Source: Candidatus Parcubacteria bacterium (GTDB lineage: Bacteria > Patescibacteriota > Patescibacteriia > Patescibacteriales > UBA12075). From it: DNA of 64,000 nt. Positions 6,688 through 51,798 of this stretch are shown here, in pieces. A program made the translations under genes and the position numbers. The DNA lies in NCBI GenBank assembly GCA_963814275.1, contig CAWFCE010000002.1, positions 298,537 through 362,536 on the forward strand, given 5' to 3'. Within the stretch, counting starts at the first letter, position 1, and every line of letters begins with the position of its first letter. The notes beneath the pieces are model-generated. The model was given only the letters and a program-made list of their open reading frames with translations, made no database searches and was not told the DNA's origin.

Positions 6688-6855
6688 ATAATATTATGCC
6701 AATATGCGAATTAAGGCGAACGCCGCGAATCGCGGATCAGCAATCAGTAAATCAAAAACAAGGATGATTTCCTTGCATGGGTTACTTGAATTTTATTAAA
6801 CTTTACAATATTATTTAGATAAAGTCAAATAAGAATACGATTACACGAATCAATA

Positions 6856-7560
6856 ATGAACGCACAAATATTTATAAATATGGATAATGAAAAATCAGGT
6901 TTTTTATTAATTAATAAGCCGAGCGGGCCGACGTCGCACGATATAGTCAATCAATTGCGCCGTGTTACGGGAATAAAAAAGATCGGCCATGCGGGCACGC
7001 TGGACCCTTTCGCCAGCGGGCTTTTGATCATGGCGGTCGGACGCGAGGCTACCCGGGAAATCAGCCATTTCGTTAAATTGGACAAAATGTATATCGCGAC
7101 ATTGCGGCTTGGTGCGGTAACAGACACCTTTGATCGAGAAGGAACCATTAAAACATCGAATGTCGAATGTCGAATGTCGAATGCAAAATTAGAAAAAATT
7201 CTGCGCCAGTTCATAGGTAAACAAAAACAAATTCCGCCGATGTATAGTGCCAAGAAGATCGGTGGTAAAAAGCTGTATCAGCTGGCCCGCCGCGGCATTA
7301 CGATCGAACGCGAACCGGTAGACATAGAGATATATGACATTGAATTAGCCGGATACGATTGGCCTATGCTCAAAATAAAAACCCGCGTTTCGAGCGGGAC
7401 TTATATACGGGCATTGGCGCGTGATATCGGATTGGCTCTCGGTTGCGGAGCCTATCTCCACGCGCTGGAACGAACCGCCATCGGCGGCTATAGTATATTG
7501 GATGCGTCCGGTCTTGATGCCCTTAAGGAGGATAATTGGCAAAAAAAGTTGTTTGTATAG
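6856..7560 (+). CDS. truB: tRNA pseudouridine(55) synthase
   Basis: GFLLINKPSGPTSHD, the catalytic Asp region GHAGTLDPFASGLL and QIPPMYSAKKIGGKKLY. The start could instead be the second Met at 6880. A heptamer repeat tract lies at 7156-7184. Confidence 0.9.
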   Translation: MNAQIFINMDNEKSGFLLINKPSGPTSHDIVNQLRRVTGIKKIGHAGTLDPFASGLLIMAVGREATREISHFVKLDKMYIATLRLGAVTDTFDREGTIKTSNVECRMSNAKLEKILRQFIGKQKQIPPMYSAKKIGGKKLYQLARRGITIEREPVDIEIYDIELAGYDWPMLKIKTRVSSGTYIRALARDIGLALGCGAYLHALERTAIGGYSILDASGLDALKEDNWQKKLFV

Positions 7561-7566
7561 GCAGGG

Positions 7567-8334
7567 CTAAGGGTGAGTTTGCGGGTTTAAACGCATAAAA
7601 ATATCGCCATTTTCCTGAAAATCAATTTTATTTATTATCTCAATAAACTTATTTATCTCCAGCCAGTCTTCCTGCTTGAATTCCGGGGAATCAGTGGCCA
7701 CGAAATTAAACCGGTAATCGCCAAGTTTGGAAATCAAATGGAGACAATCGAGCGTATCCGTTTTTGCCGCTGAATTGAATTCGATTGACATCAGGGGCAG
7801 GGGCGCGCTTAATCCGCTTAAGACCTGGTATTCGAAATTCTCCACGTCGATCTTAATGTAGTCCGGCCGGCCGAATTCCTTTATCAATTCATCGAGAGTT
7901 GTTATCGGTACTGTGATGGATTTTCGCCAAAGTTCTTTCTTAAAGCCGGTTTCTTTGTGTTTGGCGGAAAAAGTCGATACGGTTGGCCGGTTGTGGCAGA
8001 TGAAGAAAGGCAGCTCTCCCGGCCGATTGCCCACCCCCTTTTTTACTATTATGACTTTTGTGTCATTCCTAAATCTGTCAGCGAGGCGGCTCGCGACTTG
8101 CGGGTTTGGCTCTACGGCCACAACCTTTTTCGCCAATTGCCGGAAGATATCGGTATGGTCGCCGAGATGGGCGCCGACATCGAATACCAAAAAATCTTCG
8201 GCAAGTATTTGGCCGTATAACAACCGTAGCCTTTTTTCTGAATGGTCGAATAATTTCTTGTATATCGGACGTAAAAGATAGATAACTTGTTCCGGCAAAA
8301 AACGATTGATATAGAATAAGAATTTTTTCATCAT
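7567..8334 (-). CDS. FkbM-family SAM-dependent methyltransferase
   Basis: VFDVGAHLGDHT (SAM-binding loop), VVAVEPNP and IKIDVENFEYQVLSG match the FkbM family pattern. Confidence 0.75.
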   Translation of the reverse strand: MMKKFLFYINRFLPEQVIYLLRPIYKKLFDHSEKRLRLLYGQILAEDFLVFDVGAHLGDHTDIFRQLAKKVVAVEPNPQVASRLADRFRNDTKVIIVKKGVGNRPGELPFFICHNRPTVSTFSAKHKETGFKKELWRKSITVPITTLDELIKEFGRPDYIKIDVENFEYQVLSGLSAPLPLMSIEFNSAAKTDTLDCLHLISKLGDYRFNFVATDSPEFKQEDWLEINKFIEIINKIDFQENGDIFMRLNPQTHP

Positions 8335-47771: not shown

Positions 47772-49352
47772 ATGCATATTCTAATTATCATTTTTTCCAT
47801 TCTATTTACTGTTTTAGCGGTCAAGCGTTTGAATTGGGCGGTTTTTTTGATGTTGGCCCTGCTGCCTGCTTATCAAATCCGATTTCAGGTTCTGGGTATA
47901 CCTTTTACTCTGCTTGAAACAATGATCCTGACCTCATTTGCTATTTGGCTCATCAGGAACTGGAAGCAGATATTAGAGAATTTAAAAAATAAAATAAAGA
48001 ACCGTTTACAAATTACAAATTACAAATTACAAATTACCACGCGTTATCCTTTCGACCTCGAGATTATCGCCCTGCTCATCATATCCTGGATCGCGATCGT
48101 GGTGGCCGGATTTTCGAATGAAGCGCTGGGAGTATGGAAGGCATATTTTTTCGAACCGGTGCTGGTGTTTATTTTGGTGATGAATGTTTTCGGTAATAGC
48201 GCAAAAGACGCAGACTTCACGCAAAAGGCGCAAAATGCCGCCCAGCCGAAATCGGGCAAGGGAATTGAGCCGGTTTTGTGGGCGTTGACTCTGGGGGCGG
48301 GTTGGATAGCGCTGTGGGCGATTATCGAGCGGATCACCGGCTGGACCGCCCACGGGAATTTTTGGCCGCGCGTGACCGGTCCGTTTCCTTATCCCAATGC
48401 GCTGGGGCTTTATTTGGGCCCGGTCTCGGTTCTATTGGTCGGTTGGATTTTGAACAAGATGCAAGACGCAAGATACAAGATACAAAATGACAAAATATTT
48501 ATTGTGCAAATTTTGTCTATTGCGCTTGTGGTACTATTGTCTTTGTTCGCGATCATGCTGGCCAGGAGCGAAGGGGCGATCATCGGGATCCTGGCGGCGG
48601 TATTGGTCATGGGGTTGTTTATGTCCGGTAGTAAAAGAAAGAAGGTCCGTTGGCTGCCGGCCGGCATTACCGGGTTAATATTACTTTTCGTTTTTATAAG
48701 CGCGCCGCTCTATCTCCTGGCCGTACCGCGCGACCAGTATTTCGATTTCCATAATGGCGGGCTTAATTACCTGTCGGACAAGATAATGCTTAAGGACTTG
48801 TCGGGGGAGATCAGGAAACAGCAGTGGCGGGAGACCTGGGCGATGATGAAAGACAATTGGCGCTGGCTGACCGGCACCGGCCTGTCCGGTTATCGGGCGG
48901 CGATCGCGCCGTACCACCAGCCGGGGATATTCTTCAACAGCGGCCGTGATCCGGAATTCCACCGCCACACGGTCTGGGACGAAGCCTACCGCAACGCGCA
49001 TTGGCAGCCGGTTGAGATATATATGTATCCGCACAATTTACTCCTGAATTTCTGGACGGAGCTGGGGCTGGCCGGAGTAATTTTGTTTATCTGGATAATC
49101 CTTAAATTTATTTATTTAGCGTTTACCAGTTACAAATTGCAAACCGCAAATCCAACCGGTGGCCCCCAAAAGGAATATTTACTTTTGGGTTTACTGGGTG
49201 CGATAATAGTTATTGTCGTCCATGGCATTGTCGATGTGCCGTATTTCAAAAACGATCTGGCGGTTTTGTTCTGGCTGCTGGCGGCAATGATGGGTTTTAT
49301 CGGAATATCCGCCCATATCAAAGAAAAAAAAGATAATATTGATGCAGGTTGA
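47772..49352 (+). CDS. O-antigen ligase-like (Wzy_C domain) polytopic membrane protein
   Basis: 526 aa and ~12 TM helices, with a large loop containing ...LARSEGAIIGILAAVL... and HPHNLLLNFWTELGLAG (Wzy_C-type H..N....E.G). A word tract (acaaatt)x4 lies at 48008-48038. Confidence 0.65.
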   Translation: MHILIIIFSILFTVLAVKRLNWAVFLMLALLPAYQIRFQVLGIPFTLLETMILTSFAIWLIRNWKQILENLKNKIKNRLQITNYKLQITTRYPFDLEIIALLIISWIAIVVAGFSNEALGVWKAYFFEPVLVFILVMNVFGNSAKDADFTQKAQNAAQPKSGKGIEPVLWALTLGAGWIALWAIIERITGWTAHGNFWPRVTGPFPYPNALGLYLGPVSVLLVGWILNKMQDARYKIQNDKIFIVQILSIALVVLLSLFAIMLARSEGAIIGILAAVLVMGLFMSGSKRKKVRWLPAGITGLILLFVFISAPLYLLAVPRDQYFDFHNGGLNYLSDKIMLKDLSGEIRKQQWRETWAMMKDNWRWLTGTGLSGYRAAIAPYHQPGIFFNSGRDPEFHRHTVWDEAYRNAHWQPVEIYMYPHNLLLNFWTELGLAGVILFIWIILKFIYLAFTSYKLQTANPTGGPQKEYLLLGLLGAIIVIVVHGIVDVPYFKNDLAVLFWLLAAMMGFIGISAHIKEKKDNIDAG

Positions 49353-49467: not shown

Positions 49468-50223
49468 GTGGCCAAGCTGATACTACAAAAATTCATCGTC
49501 GATTCAGGCTTTTGCTCGCGGCGCCAGGCGACCGAATTGATCAGGGCGGGGAAAGTAACGGTAAACGGTGAAGTGGCTGAGCCGGGCATGAAAGTATTTT
49601 CCAATGACGATGTCCGGATAGGAAAGAAGCGTTTACCCGGCGAGCCGGAAAAAATCTACCTGATCATAAATAAGCCGGATGGCTATGTCTGCACGAACCG
49701 GACTTTTACCGGTGAGAAGAACGTTTATGACCTGCTGCTTGACCGCCAGGGAGAAAAAGCGTATCCGAAACAGCGCCTGTTCGTGGTTGGCCGTCTGGAC
49801 AAGAACAGCCGCGGCTTAGTGTTAATCACCAATGACGGCGATATGGCCCAGCGGGTGTCGCATCCCCGGTTCGGGCATGAAAAAGTATATGCAGTAAAAT
49901 TGCGGATGACGAATGACGAATGCCAAAAGAATAAAGATAGATTGATAAAGAACCTGGTAAAGGGGGTCGATATCGGCGAGGGAGACGGTGTTGTCAGGGC
50001 AAAAAAGGCTGAGTATTTGGGTGAAAATAAATTCAAAGTAATCTTGACCCAGGGGGTGAAACGGCAGATCAGACGGATGTTCAAGACTCTGGGCATCGAA
50101 GTCATCGATCTCAAGCGGACGCGTATCGGCTGTACCAAATGCGGCATTGAATTGGGCGATCTGCGCTGTGGCCGTTGGCGCAAACTCAAGCTGGAAGAAA
50201 TAGAAAAATTACAGGAGAGTTAA
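49468..50223 (+). CDS. RsuA/RluB-family pseudouridine synthase with an S4 domain
   Basis: GTG start. S4 domain: LQKFIVDSGFCSRRQATELIRAGKVTVNGE. Catalytic motif GRLDKNSRGLVLITNDG. A word tract gatgacgaatgacgaatgcc lies at 49905-49924. Confidence 0.85.
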   Translation: MAKLILQKFIVDSGFCSRRQATELIRAGKVTVNGEVAEPGMKVFSNDDVRIGKKRLPGEPEKIYLIINKPDGYVCTNRTFTGEKNVYDLLLDRQGEKAYPKQRLFVVGRLDKNSRGLVLITNDGDMAQRVSHPRFGHEKVYAVKLRMTNDECQKNKDRLIKNLVKGVDIGEGDGVVRAKKAEYLGENKFKVILTQGVKRQIRRMFKTLGIEVIDLKRTRIGCTKCGIELGDLRCGRWRKLKLEEIEKLQES

Positions 50224-50341
50224 TGGTCAAGTGCTAAAAGTCAAATTCGGAGAGGTGGCTCGAGTGGTTGCCCGCGACATAGCCGCTTGGCGGCTCGCGC
50301 GGGTCCGCGCACCCGCGAAGCGGGATGTCGCGGAAAGGCTT

Positions 50342-50587
50342 ATGTATTATACATATTTTTTATTTAGTAAAAACCATAAAAAGGTTTATGTCGGTTCGAC
50401 CGAAGATTTGAAGACCAGAATCAAAACACATAATGAAGGCAGGGTGCAATCGACAAGATATTATCGGCCATGGGTAATTGTGTATTATGAGGCCCATCGC
50501 AATAAAACATTGGCAAGAAAAGCCGAACTTTTCTATAAATCCAGCCAAGGCAGGCGGCAAGTAAAAAAGAAATTAGGTTTAGAGTAA
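50342..50587 (+). CDS. Small GIY-YIG nuclease (81 aa; 82 codons incl. stop), copy 1
   Basis: MYYTYFLFSKNHKKVYVGSTEDLKTRIKTHNEGRVQSTRYYRPWVIVYYEAHRNKTLARKAELFYK... carries the GIY (YTYFL) and YIG (VYVGST) motifs, the conserved Arg and the conserved Glu. The track's upstream extension translates the tRNA fragment and hairpins, so I rejected it. Confidence 0.8.
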   Translation: MYYTYFLFSKNHKKVYVGSTEDLKTRIKTHNEGRVQSTRYYRPWVIVYYEAHRNKTLARKAELFYKSSQGRRQVKKKLGLE

Positions 50588-50697
50588 TATTATTATAGAT
50601 TTCCGGAGAGGTGGCTCGAGTGGTTGCCCGCGACGTAGCCGCTTGGCGGCTCGCGCGGGTCCGCGCACCCGCGAAGCGGGATGTCGCGGAAAGGCTT

Positions 50698-50943
50698 ATG
50701 TATTATACATATTTTTTATTTAGTAAAAACCATAAAAAGGTTTATGTCGGTTCAACCGAAGATTTGAAGACCAGAATCAAAACACATAATGAAGGCAGGG
50801 TGCAATCGACAAGATATTATCGGCCATGGGTAATTGTGTATTATGAGGCCCATCGCAATAAAACATTGGCAAGAAAAGCCGAACTTTTCTATAAATCCAG
50901 CCAAGGCAGGCGGCAAGTAAAAAAGAAATTAGGTTTAGAGTAA
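50698..50943 (+). CDS. Small GIY-YIG nuclease, copy 2
   Basis: The protein is identical to copy 1, with one synonymous tcg-to-tca change. Confidence 0.8.
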   Translation: MYYTYFLFSKNHKKVYVGSTEDLKTRIKTHNEGRVQSTRYYRPWVIVYYEAHRNKTLARKAELFYKSSQGRRQVKKKLGLE

Positions 50944-51053
50944 TATTATTATAGATTTCCGGAGAGGTGGCTCGAGTGGTTGCCCGCGACGTAGCCGCTT
51001 GGCGGCTCGCGCGGGTCCGCGCACCCGCGAAGCGGGATGTCGCGGAAAGGCTT

Positions 51054-51300
51054 ATGTATTATACATATTTTTTATTTAGTAAAAACCATAAAAAGGTTTA
51101 TGTCGGTTCGAACCGAAGATTTGAAGACCAGAATCAAAACACATAATGAAGGCAGGGTGCAATCGACAAGATATTATCGGCCATGGGTAATTGTGTATTA
51201 TGAGGCCCATCGCAATAAAACATTGGCAAGAAAAGCCGAACTTTTCTATAAATCCAGCCAAGGCAGGCGGCAAGTAAAAAAGAAATTAGGTTTAGAGTAA
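51054..51300 (+). pseudogene. GIY-YIG nuclease copy 3, frameshifted
   Basis: gtcggttcgAaccgaag has one extra base relative to copies 1 and 2, and the frame breaks right after the YVGS motif. Confidence 0.75.
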
Positions 51301-51317
51301 TATTATTATAGATTTCC

Positions 51318-51408
51318 GGAGAGGTGGCTCGAGTGGTTGAAGGCGTCGCTCTCGAAAAGCGATGTGCGTGCAAGCGTACCGGGAGTTCGAATCTCCCCCT
51401 CTCCGCCA
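51318..51408 (+). tRNA. tRNA-Ser(CGA), CCA encoded
   Basis: ggagaggtggctcgagtggttgaaggcgtcgctctCGAaaagcgatgtgcgtgcaagcgtaccgggagttcgaatctccccctctccgcca, with a long variable arm. Confidence 0.9.
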
Positions 51409-51487
51409 TTCCAATTTTTGGTTTACGATTTTCGATTTAGATTATAAGCTTAATTCGAAAATCGAAAATCGTAATTCGAAAATTTCC

Positions 51488-51559
51488 GCACCCGTCGTTC
51501 AACGGATAGGACACAAGTTTCCGGAACTTGCGATCGAGGTTCGATTCCTCGCGGGTGCA
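51488..51559 (+). tRNA. tRNA-Arg(CCG)
   Basis: gcacccgtcgttcaacggataggacacaagtttCCGgaacttgcgatcgaggttcgattcctcgcgggtgca. Confidence 0.85.
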
Positions 51560-51798
51560 CCCTTCGACAGGCTCAGGGCAGGCCCTTCAGCTCAGTGACA
51601 CTTGCTCGGGGCAGACCCTTCAACATCGTACTGTTTGCTCAAGGCAGGCTGCCCGACTCTTAATTGATGGTTGAAAATTATTTTCCGCGTTTAATCCGCG
51701 TATTGATCAGCGTCCAATCAGCGGTAGAATGATTGATTGTTCGACTGCCGTGAATATCGTGGAAGCGGTAAAAAACTATCGTTCAAGGGTAATATTGT

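Follow-up and report, generated by a model that had tools for sequence, protein, structure and literature searches.

A tandem array of hairpin-paired GIY-YIG nuclease cassettes at the tRNA-Ser(CGA) gene of a Candidatus Parcubacteria bacterium

Why should a bacterial gene for an essential serine transfer RNA (tRNA) begin four times in a row and be completed only once? This question is raised by a stretch of 64,000 nucleotides from Candidatus Parcubacteria bacterium (assembly GCA_963814275.1, contig CAWFCE010000002.1, positions 298,537 to 362,536 of the forward strand), hereafter called the window, in which three tandem cassettes, each carrying a small GIY-YIG nuclease open reading frame (ORF), precede an intact tRNA-Ser(CGA). 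The cassette consists of a double-hairpin element placed at a YYG/AR motif in a tRNA loop, together with a gene for a minimal nuclease of 81 residues of the SLX1/UPF0213 type, and it is widespread in Patescibacteria. The anatomy and conservation of the unit, the covariation of its hairpins, its target motif and arm lengths, its insertion polymorphism, its foreign base composition and the purifying selection on its ORF are described here, and the probable reading is that of a selfish cassette, homing-like in behaviour, which restores the tRNA that it disrupts and which has been amplified in tandem at this gene.

Anatomy of the tandem array

The 22-mer with which the tRNA-Ser gene starts, GGAGAGGTGGCTCGAGTGGTTG, has exactly four occurrences on the + strand, at 50249, 50605, 50961 and 51318, where none is expected by chance (100 shuffles). 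Tandem Repeats Finder reports for 50248-51339 a period of 356, with 3.1 copies and 99% matches, and together with the three-copy alignment this delimits an array of three cassettes of 356, 356 and 357 bp at 50249-51317, on the + strand as are all features described below for the window. The four tRNA-Ser starts at 356/356/357 spacing, on which the original prediction was founded, are therefore borne out, as is its statement that the last copy alone is a tRNA, since ARAGORN and Rfam call tRNA-Ser(CGA) only at 51318-51408 (47.7 bits with the Rfam tRNA model). The first 27 nt of this intact gene are the sequence duplicated in each cassette.

Each unit runs from tRNA nt 1-22 through a 64-nt double hairpin, AAGGC, the dinucleotide tt, the ORF and a 17-nt spacer to the next tRNA +1. 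The AAGGC that follows the 64-nt segment corresponds to tRNA nt 23-27, where the tRNA copy ends, and the GC-rich segment is a precise D-loop insertion in a tRNA copy truncated 5 nt further on. The GC-rich stretch noticed earlier after the 22 nt is thus real; its length of ~62 nt and the notion of a fragment that simply ends there gave way to 64 nt followed by AAGGC. In the first copy, the displaced 5' fragment occupies 50249-50270 and begins at the exact tRNA +1, as seen in the 22-mer match and the left-arm analysis. It is followed by a type I hairpin element with 77% GC (50271-50334), inserted between GGTTG and AAGGC of the D-loop and identified by covariation and by the covariance model R1 (58.5 bits, E 2e-11). 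The short arm AAGGC (50335-50339), the intact ORF with its ATG at 50342 (50342-50587; 81 aa plus TAA, by Pfam PF01541 and AlphaFold2) and an AT-rich spacer of 17 nt that leads from the stop codon to the next tRNA +1 (50588-50604) complete the unit.

The other two copies repeat this order, the fragments being recognised by the exact 22-mer, the hairpins by the covariance model, the short arms by sequence and arm-length analysis, and the spacers by sequence. The second copy comprises tRNA nt 1-22 (50605-50626), a double hairpin with G at unit column 31 (50627-50690, also from the alignment), AAGGC (50691-50695), an intact ORF with a synonymous tca (50698-50943, from the ORF list and the alignment) and the spacer (50944-50960). 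The third comprises tRNA nt 1-22 (50961-50982), the double hairpin (50983-51046), AAGGC (51047-51051), an ORF broken by a 1-nt insertion at ~51110 (51054-51300, appearing as the split ORFs 50967-51146 and 51037-51300) and a spacer that abuts the intact tRNA (51301-51317). In the three-copy alignment the units differ at two places only: unit column 31, inside the hairpin, has A in the first copy and G in the other two, and columns 150-151 have G in the first copy, A in the second and GA in the third, which represents a synonymous tcg/tca change plus the 1-nt insertion that frameshifts copy 3. All the differences reported beforehand (A/G, tcg/tca and the ORF-breaking insertion) were recovered in this way. 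The near identity of the copies implies that the triplication is recent.

The ORF has a GC content of 35.8% and a GC content at third codon positions (GC3) of 36.6%, compared with a GC3 of 59-69% in the neighbouring genes; its base composition is foreign. On copy number, an independent short-read contig from Logan (L056) carries an identical rluB gene and flank and stops 8 nt into the first hairpin. The end of L056 is the point at which flank-specific 31-mers would run out, which fits at least two cassette copies in the reads, provided that Logan contigs are built with k = 31. No transposase or integrase gene was found around the array in the window. A promoter and terminator scan gave no sigma-70-like site inside the array above the shuffle background, and the 'terminator-like' matches fall within the ORF. 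The reading frame also extends without a stop from the true ATG back into the hairpin and the tRNA fragment, giving GTG-start ORFs at 50231-50587 (118 aa) and 50611-50943 (110 aa), versions that are probably gene-calling artefacts; several database homologues of 95-143 aa seemingly derive from the same upstream open frame.

The nuclease, the hairpin and their pairing

Related loci were collected by a scan with one genome per species, which gave 55 loci, all of them in Patescibacteria or in metagenome-assembled genomes (MAGs) labelled otherwise. Most comparison genomes are MAGs, and the counted sites are phylogenetically related, so the counts given here overstate independence. In the genome loci of ORF family 1, the next downstream tRNA on the same strand is tRNA-Ser in 35 of 37, at a distance of 4-365 nt and mostly <45 nt, the two exceptions being a contig end and an N-masked stretch. 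Two further metagenome loci both have tRNA-Ser downstream, for a total of 37/39, and the anticodons concerned are CGA, TGA, GCT and GGA. The search for the same ORF beside tRNA genes in related genomes, proposed as a check, thus upholds the idea of a free-standing GIY-YIG element tied to tRNA-Ser. The same architecture recurs at nearly every ORF, namely tRNA-Ser nt 1 to X, the hairpin element, ~6 nt of tRNA, the ORF, 2-30 nt and the intact tRNA-Ser, and many of the loci lie at contig ends. Among the distant homologues from Saccharibacteria (L033-L051), most have no tRNA neighbour and two lie upstream of tRNA-Lys, without fragments or hairpins, which indicates that the architecture is specific to particular subfamilies. 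By eye, the homologue in one of these loci, which has no tRNA neighbour, is flanked by a ~20-nt inverted repeat (CCTAGTAGTGAGCCTTCTGC ... GCAGAAGGTCTACAACTAGG; L033, 2440-2790), so that its ORF sits in the loop of a long hairpin.

When folded alone, the hairpin element of the window forms one branched hairpin, and the 'cloverleaf' first described stands as the fold of this copy; it does not hold across 22 homologous elements, whose conserved structure is two adjacent hairpins. In the alignment of these 22 elements, 93.6% of cells are paired, compared with 33-44% in slid controls, and 15 of 23 pairs show compensatory changes; the observed values were reached by 0/500 shuffles. The covariance model built from this alignment detects three elements in the 64-kb window, all in the array, and finds the element in almost all related loci, beside tRNA fragments. 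Some elements are inverted relative to the tRNA and G-U pairs are rare in the stems, both of which fit a DNA-level rather than an RNA-level role. Searches of Rfam 15 (the window region at E up to 10, and six related loci) returned nothing on the element, only tRNAs and tRNA-derived plastid/miRNA noise. A hammerhead or other ribozyme, suggested by CUGAUGAG in one locus, was rejected, the motif not being conserved and having no Rfam match. In a metagenome DNA scan with the 15-mer GAGCGGGTCCGCTCA, 80 loci were retrieved, of which 3 were confirmed as hairpin elements by the covariance model; the other matches are due to chance in GC-rich DNA.

Over 38 sites, the insertion target reads Y (36/38), Y (35/38), G (30/38), then the hairpin element, then A (34/38) and R (38/38), and the insertion points are found at the D-stem/loop boundary, in the D-loop, in the anticodon loop and in the T-loop. 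The target initially assumed, the 5' part of tRNA-Ser, had to be abandoned, as sites in several loops share the YYG/AR motif and occasionally belong to tRNA-Arg, Gly or Thr. In elements located upstream of the intact gene, the left arm reaches the exact tRNA +1 in 22 of 27, and the short right arm has a mode of 6 nt with a range of 3-11. The tRNA position that precedes the element (X) is 13, ~21 or 35/36, corresponding to the D-stem/loop boundary, the D-loop and the anticodon loop. The nucleotides after the element are AGTGGC/AGCGGT at X=13, AAGGCA/AAAGTA at X=21 and AAAACY/AAAAGC at X=36; since they vary with the local tRNA, they are target sequence and not part of the element.

Elements without an ORF are arranged as a mirror image downstream of the gene (intact tRNA, spacer, 5-7 nt of tRNA, hairpin element, tRNA to its 3' end), many of them in the T-loop; the tRNA copies that hold them are incomplete versions of tRNA-Ser, Arg, Gly or Thr, with the intact genes adjacent. 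Locus L069 offers two examples, with type I elements in the T-loop (GTT/CGA) of a partial tRNA-Gly(CCC) and a partial tRNA-Thr(CGT) at 7012-7084 and 7879-7936, next to the intact genes, and no GIY-YIG ORF was found in the examined stretch (6800-8200). In-silico deletion of the hairpin never restored a sole-copy tRNA; the hairpin-bearing copies are partial or redundant. A tRNA intron was excluded on this ground, and also because the tRNA restarts at +1 after each cassette and neither Intron_gpI nor any other Rfam model matched. The earlier view that the arrangement is neither an intron nor a classical 3'-end tRNA integration is accordingly sustained, the duplicated segment being the 5' one and no recombinase gene lying near the array. 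Two unusual placements were observed. In L011 (2750-2833) the element follows tRNA nt 3, and its 3' end (GCGGA) supplies the GGA that restores the tRNA 5' end, leaving the gene intact; in L029 (2847-2912) the element lies directly against the discriminator base and begins with CCA.

The ORF, announced as a GIY-YIG gene of 82 codons, encodes 81 aa plus TAA, and its product matches Pfam GIY-YIG PF01541 with an E value of 6.9e-16 and 58.8 bits (cutoff 22.6). A profile of the family retrieves ~5,300 cluster representatives at E ≤1e-10. Identity with 21 homologues is 60-72%, and Y5, Y16, G18, R26, H30, N31, E50, E62 and K66 are invariant in 21 sequences, so that on proper alignment, a check that had been called for, the catalytic GIY-YIG residues are intact. 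E62 aligns with the conserved Glu of UPF0213 proteins. In a profile search of PDB sequences, UPF0213 came first (BH0048, 1zg2, E 1.5e-8; 1ywl, 1e-7; EF2693 among them), followed by SLX1 (~1.6e-4), I-TevI (0.018) and UvrC (0.51). The AlphaFold2 model, with a predicted local distance difference test score of 93.7, consists of one beta-beta-alpha-beta-alpha-alpha domain (strands 2-9, 14-20 and 45-52; helices 23-31, 55-66 and 68-78). In the fold search, the best superpositions were with UPF0213 and SLX1, at a template-modelling (TM) score of 0.71 and a root mean square deviation of 1.5 Å over 73 columns; SLX1 reached TM scores of 0.64-0.71, compared with ~0.5 for I-TevI, and Foldseek matches at probability ≥0.84 were GIY-YIG domains exclusively. 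Judged from its sequence and predicted fold, the protein is a single-domain GIY-YIG nuclease of the SLX1/UPF0213 branch, from which the C-terminal RING/zinc-finger domain of SLX1 is absent.

The NCBIfam model grpIintron_endo gave 23.7 bits against a cutoff of 56 and covered residues 5-32 only. An I-TevI-type homing endonuclease is ruled out, because a whole protein of 81 aa has no room for a linker and a C-terminal DNA-binding domain, and the classic homing-endonuclease assignment made at first was replaced by that of a bare SLX1/UPF0213-type catalytic domain. As this protein lacks a DNA-binding domain, it is doubtful whether it could by itself recognise the tRNA gene in a sequence-specific manner. 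In two close homologue pairs the ratio of nonsynonymous to synonymous substitution rates (dN/dS) is 0.06 and 0.10, from which it follows that the protein has been kept functional under strong purifying selection. An anti-phage defence protein was considered with PADLOC and rejected, as only short domain-level matches were obtained (E 7e-6 or weaker, ~40 residues of much longer proteins).

A second ORF family, 43% identical to family 1 and with >359 members, is preceded, in all 7 loci examined, by a hairpin family distinct from type I, called type II, with the consensus CCCCGTCATTCGACGGGG-CGCCCTGTCGAATGACAGGGCG. Type II also consists of two hairpins, with 97% of positions paired and 10 of 16 pairs compensatory, and it occupies the same anticodon-loop position of tRNA-Ser(CGA) and, in one case, lies in tRNA-Arg(CCG); the type I covariance model does not detect it. 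Family 1 is paired with type I in ~30 loci, and a third ORF type, in L008, is paired with a third hairpin type. Since each ORF subfamily has its own hairpin family, ORF and hairpin travel, and probably work, as a pair. Two family-2 loci deserve a description of their own. In L183 (630-1200), on a contig of 1.17 Mb labelled Kiritimatiellae, a cassette at tRNA-Arg(CCG) shows a 5' fragment with two hairpins, the ORF and the intact tRNA, with a 23S_rRNA_IVP-family gene just upstream. In L180 a weak Pfam match to Y1_Tnp, the IS200-like HUH transposase, lies ~600 nt downstream of the cassette (1670-1894), and this gene is the sole transposase-like neighbour in any locus.

Mobility, proposed mechanism and competing explanations

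In the nearest relatives the gene order Wzy_C - RluB - tRNA-Ser(CGA) - tRNA-Arg(CCG) - RNase_T - RuvB is conserved, with RluB 62-64% identical. The rluB-like pseudouridine synthase gene of the window (49468-50223, from the ORF list and synteny) served as anchor for locating empty and remnant sites, and tRNA-Arg(CCG) (51488-51561, by ARAGORN and Rfam) is the syntenic partner of tRNA-Ser in the relatives. L058 and L059 have an empty site, in which rluB is followed by 5 nt and tRNA-Ser, so the cassette-free tRNA-Ser that had been proposed as something to look for does exist. L057 holds a remnant, in which the identical 22-nt fragment is followed by a mini double hairpin of 30 nt, by AAGGG, by 45 nt without an ORF, and then by an intact tRNA-Ser(CGA) of a different sequence type. 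The same synteny is therefore seen in three states: empty (L058/L059), remnant (L057) and three cassettes (the window). The 45-nt spacer of L057 was compared with the 3' end of the ORF and rejected as its remnant, given that 222 of 500 shuffles score as well.

Fragment and intact tRNA are of different types in L057, L018, L182 and L185, and the arms are non-cognate in L003 and L021, which hints at co-conversion of donor sequence flanking the target. Two different cassettes stand in series in L008 and L018, hairpin units are duplicated in L017 and L029, and L187 is a palimpsest of fragments. The two best matches among 1.84 billion representatives, P0280 and P0281, are read-through proteins with two identical GIY-YIG domains, which, at the level of protein sequence, suggests tandem units of tRNA and GIY-YIG gene in other genomes; the linker before each start reads RFES or WFES, as from a translated tRNA T-arm (GG TTC GAA TCC). 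Two further features of the empty-site relatives were recorded. In L058/L059 (3440-3525) a type II element lies in a duplicated 3' fragment of tRNA-Arg(CCG) (GGTTCG/hairpin/ATTCCTGCCGAGAGCAC) just after the intact tRNA-Arg, so hairpin elements also strike non-Ser tRNAs. A ParE-like toxin and ribbon-helix-helix (RHH) antitoxin pair is located between Wzy_C and rluB (1828-2390) and is absent from the window and from L057.

For the homing-like cassette we infer a nuclease activity, the hairpin as its substrate, a repair pathway and an order of events. The nuclease would break a tRNA gene or the DNA next to it; in repair from a template that carries the cassette, the ORF and the 5' part of the tRNA would be copied in, and the resident tRNA 5' end would stay behind as a fragment. 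The essential tRNA stays functional because its 5' part is present twice, once in the dead hairpin-bearing fragment and once in the intact gene. In the preferred version, the nuclease would recognise hairpin or cruciform DNA and cut ~6 nt from the hairpin base, and such a break would separate the hairpin-bearing stump from the rest of the gene, which would then be rebuilt. Hairpin-directed cleavage is favoured because the short arm keeps a constant length of ~6 nt on either side of the hairpin, depending on which one faces the intact gene, because the protein lacks a DNA-binding domain and resembles SLX1, and because ORF and hairpin co-vary. The tandem triplication could be the product of out-of-register repair or of unequal recombination, first through the 22-27-nt repeats and later through the 356-bp units. 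The ORF may be expressed by read-through from upstream (the rluB promoter region) and released by an RNase P cut at the tRNA +1, a predicted route made plausible by the lack of any promoter or terminator detected inside the array.

A more far-reaching and less likely proposal is that the cassette represents an unrecognised class of mobile element, a two-part system of a structure-specific, SLX1-like nuclease and its cognate double hairpin in which the hairpin, in place of a protein DNA-binding domain, would set the cut ~6 nt from its base. In such a system the hairpins might seed YYG/AR sites in tRNA loops, while break repair might spread the nuclease gene and rebuild the tRNA; elements without an ORF could then perhaps be non-autonomous derivatives acting on several tRNA species.

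Several points weigh against the homing-like cassette as set out here. The copy number of three rests on one assembly, and no sigma-70-like promoter that might drive expression was found inside the array. The intact tRNA retains YYG/AR sites, so repeated self-cleavage must be avoided somehow, and insertion of the hairpin as the initial event would transiently kill an essential single-copy tRNA. By analogy with SLX1, which needs SLX4, the 81-aa domain may need a partner, and the literature search found no biochemical data for the cassette protein or for any UPF0213 member. The co-variation of hairpin and ORF could be simple linkage rather than recognition. In L058 and L069 hairpins without an ORF occur with no GIY-YIG gene within the DNA available, so mobilisation in trans has to be supposed for them. 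Viral contigs scanned with the protein profile contained no relatives.

It could be supposed that a classical sequence-specific free-standing homing endonuclease cuts the cassette-free tRNA-Ser, the hairpin being an unrelated passenger, similar to a miniature inverted-repeat transposable element (MITE), that survives in dead fragments. This is rather unlikely, even though homing endonucleases are known among GIY-YIG enzymes, the gene for T4 SegB lies in a tRNA cluster, the linkage to tRNA-Ser is strong, an empty site exists, hairpins also occur without ORFs, and in L187 a tRNA fragment stops exactly at the target site with no hairpin there. The protein lacks the DNA-binding domain that gives I-TevI-type enzymes their specificity, the ORF always starts 6-26 nt from the hairpin plus ~6 nt of tRNA at three different tRNA positions, every ORF subfamily has its own hairpin family, and the cassette serves four tRNA-Ser isoacceptors and tRNA-Arg, of differing sequence. 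That the hairpins were moved by other machinery (an HUH Y1 enzyme like that of repetitive extragenic palindromes (REP) and their RAYT transposases, an IS200/IS605-type element, or host recombination at palindromes), with the GIY-YIG protein as cargo or as a host repair nuclease, is improbable. Hairpin-ended elements beside a short motif are typical of IS200/IS605 and REP, the Y1_Tnp match of L180 and the ORF-less hairpins at tRNA-Gly, Thr and Arg with no GIY-YIG nearby point the same way, and purifying selection would also suit a host function. Against these stand the window, with no transposase or integrase gene around the array, and the related loci, where no protein gene other than the GIY-YIG ORF is consistently linked to the hairpins; the foreign composition of the ORF, presence and absence among syntenic relatives and the subfamily co-variation of hairpin and ORF argue likewise.

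A 356-bp circular mini-element, integrated by a Campbell-type single crossover in the 22-nt tRNA homology and arrayed from multimers or by repeated integration, would account for a unit bounded by direct repeats of tRNA nt 1-22 and for the perfect tandem register, and a circle of hairpin, AAGGC, ORF, spacer and tRNA 1 to 22 recombining with the chromosomal tRNA would yield exactly the observed order. It is nevertheless very unlikely: no recombinase gene and no circular or viral copies were found, 22 nt is marginal for homologous recombination, and both the mirror-image ORF-less units downstream of tRNAs with their 5-7-nt arm and the constant ~6-nt arm at different insertion positions are left unexplained. 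An assembly artefact, in which a single cassette or strain variants were expanded by the assembler, would concern the triplication and leave the cassette itself real. The copies are nearly identical, and G/A/GA at one site could be strain variants or base-calling errors at TCGA/TTCGAA; however, L056 stops in the first hairpin as it would with a second copy that has a different left neighbour (taking k as 31), stacked cassettes or duplicated units recur in several unrelated assemblies, and the window belongs to a contig of 1.27 Mb, which together make such an artefact unlikely. Least credible is that the module serves the host through its RNA, with the tRNA fragment plus hairpin as a regulator, leader or processing signal of tRNA-Ser, or with the hairpin as an intron-like insert that is excised from the transcript. 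ORF and tRNA always share a strand, co-transcription is likely in view of the undetected internal promoter or terminator, and the hairpin structure is conserved, yet removal of the hairpin restores no sole-copy tRNA, some hairpins are inverted relative to the tRNA, the rarity of stem G-U pairs is what is expected if both DNA strands must pair, Rfam gives no match, and presence varies among syntenic relatives.

Known systems and neighbouring sequence

By analogy, the logic of the cassette is closest to that of the fungal mitochondrial mobile ORFs (mORFs), which insert into genes such as atp6 and cox2, bring along a second copy of the terminus of the gene and leave the native one behind, producing 'gene hybrids' in atp6 of Allomyces macrogynus and in atp6, atp9, cox2 and nad3 of Glomus (PMC3630166). 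In both cases a free-standing endonuclease ORF sits in an essential gene that is kept functional by a brought-in duplicate terminus, with the native terminus beside it, and the two termini may be of different origin, as in L057, where a native-type fragment stands beside an intact tRNA of a different type. The mORF layout is present here as a mirror image and in an RNA gene, in the form of tRNA 1-22, hairpin and 23-27, then the ORF, then tRNA 1-91. The two differ in that the cassette lies in a bacterial chromosome and duplicates the 5' terminus of a tRNA gene, whereas mORFs are found in organelles and duplicate the C-terminal end of a protein gene; moreover, the cassette has an 81-aa SLX1/UPF0213-type nuclease and an integral, co-varying cognate double hairpin. 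GC-rich double-hairpin elements, the subject of Paquin et al. 2000, reportedly populate some of those fungal mitochondrial genomes.

Free-standing GIY-YIG homing, exemplified by T4 SegB, whose gene is found in a tRNA cluster (PMC2330249), resembles the cassette in having a GIY-YIG gene between or beside tRNA genes without an intron, and in its spread by break-induced gene conversion of the gene and its flanks (PMC2330249, PMC2988022), as proposed here for the cassette. The Seg proteins, unlike the cassette protein, have at least 200 aa with DNA-binding domains and belong to phage genomes, and their systems include neither a hairpin element nor a regenerating duplication of the target gene. SLX1 and UPF0213 (YhbQ/BH0048/EF2693) are nearest in sequence profile and fold, and SLX1 is a structure-specific nuclease for branched DNA, the activity that a hairpin- or cruciform-directed cassette nuclease would need. 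In contrast to the cassette protein, SLX1 carries a RING/zinc-finger domain at its C terminus and acts together with SLX4, while for UPF0213 no function has been established and no connection with tRNA genes or hairpins described. Small GIY-YIG ORFs have been described in non-intron insertions of Patescibacteria rRNA genes (PMC11270868); these share with the cassette the phylum and a small GIY-YIG ORF in or beside a structural RNA gene, but they are located inside rRNA genes, neither a hairpin module nor a target duplication has been reported for them, and the paper does not mention tRNA genes. A distant GIY-YIG homologue within the 23S rRNA gene of a Microgenomates MAG, with rRNA on both sides (L050, 2300-2900), fits these insertions. 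Group I introns have been described in Patescibacteria tRNAs, without this cassette (PMC13011429).

Integrase islands and prophages in tRNA genes show a tRNA target, a duplicated segment that regenerates the gene, a leftover fragment at the other end and possible tandem arrays. They differ in duplicating the 3' part and in encoding a tyrosine or serine recombinase, whereas the cassette duplicates the 5' part, measures 356 bp and has no recombinase; an integrase-mediated tRNA island was rejected on the basis of the duplicated end and of the absence of a recombinase gene near the array. With IS200/IS605, REP/RAYT and MITEs the cassette shares a small hairpin-forming DNA, insertion beside a short motif and ORF-less copies that outnumber the ORF-bearing ones. 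It differs from them in that an HUH Y1 transposase partner is missing, that terminal inverted repeats and the usual target-site duplication are lacking, and that insertion always comes with partial duplication of the target tRNA; an adjacent HUH Y1 transposase was found neither in the window nor in 38/39 family-1 loci. The element is best placed among the free-standing homing-type elements, and it lies outside the I-TevI, integrase, IS200/IS605 and intron families, whose defining features are absent here. In the literature searched on GIY-YIG with tRNA-Ser, Patescibacteria, tRNA fragments, UPF0213/YhbQ and double hairpins, the arrangement of tRNA fragment, double hairpin and minimal GIY-YIG was not found described, in agreement with the original prediction, which was aware of no such tRNA 5'-end cassette.

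Introns and inteins deal with an essential host gene by splicing out, and integrases by bringing a spare 3' end; the cassette would add a third solution for selfish elements, namely a spare tRNA 5' end combined with riding on tRNA transcription. The proposed mechanism also suggests a function, open to testing, for the minimal GIY-YIG proteins of UPF0213/COG2827, a large and uncharacterised group, and if the hairpin guides the nuclease, the pair would be a very small structure-directed DNA-targeting system. In practical terms, the cassette explains why Patescibacteria genomes contain tRNA-gene fragments, broken contigs and odd 'tRNA-fused' ORF calls.

The array is surrounded by genes for Wzy_C, RluB, RNase_T, YdjM and RuvB, and several minor repeats were observed in its vicinity. 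The spacer between tRNA-Ser and tRNA-Arg (51409-51487) is filled by an AT-rich near-perfect palindrome, whose arms at 51413-51438 and 51459-51484 are 88% complementary and made of TTCGAAAATCG-like repeats; in Rfam it gave spurious miRNA matches only, and a similar 'cgacattcgaaaatcgacattcgaaaat' repeat is present in the same spacer of the syntenic relative L057 (3790-3925). Directly after tRNA-Arg, at 51559-51650, a GC-rich unit (ACCCTTCRACA ... GCTCRRGGCAGRC) occurs in three imperfect copies at 33-nt spacing. Further upstream, the gene for the Wzy_C-like membrane protein (47772-49352) contains a perfect 7-nt tandem repeat, TTACAAA, in 4.6 copies at 48006-48037, which encodes a repeated 'LQIT'.

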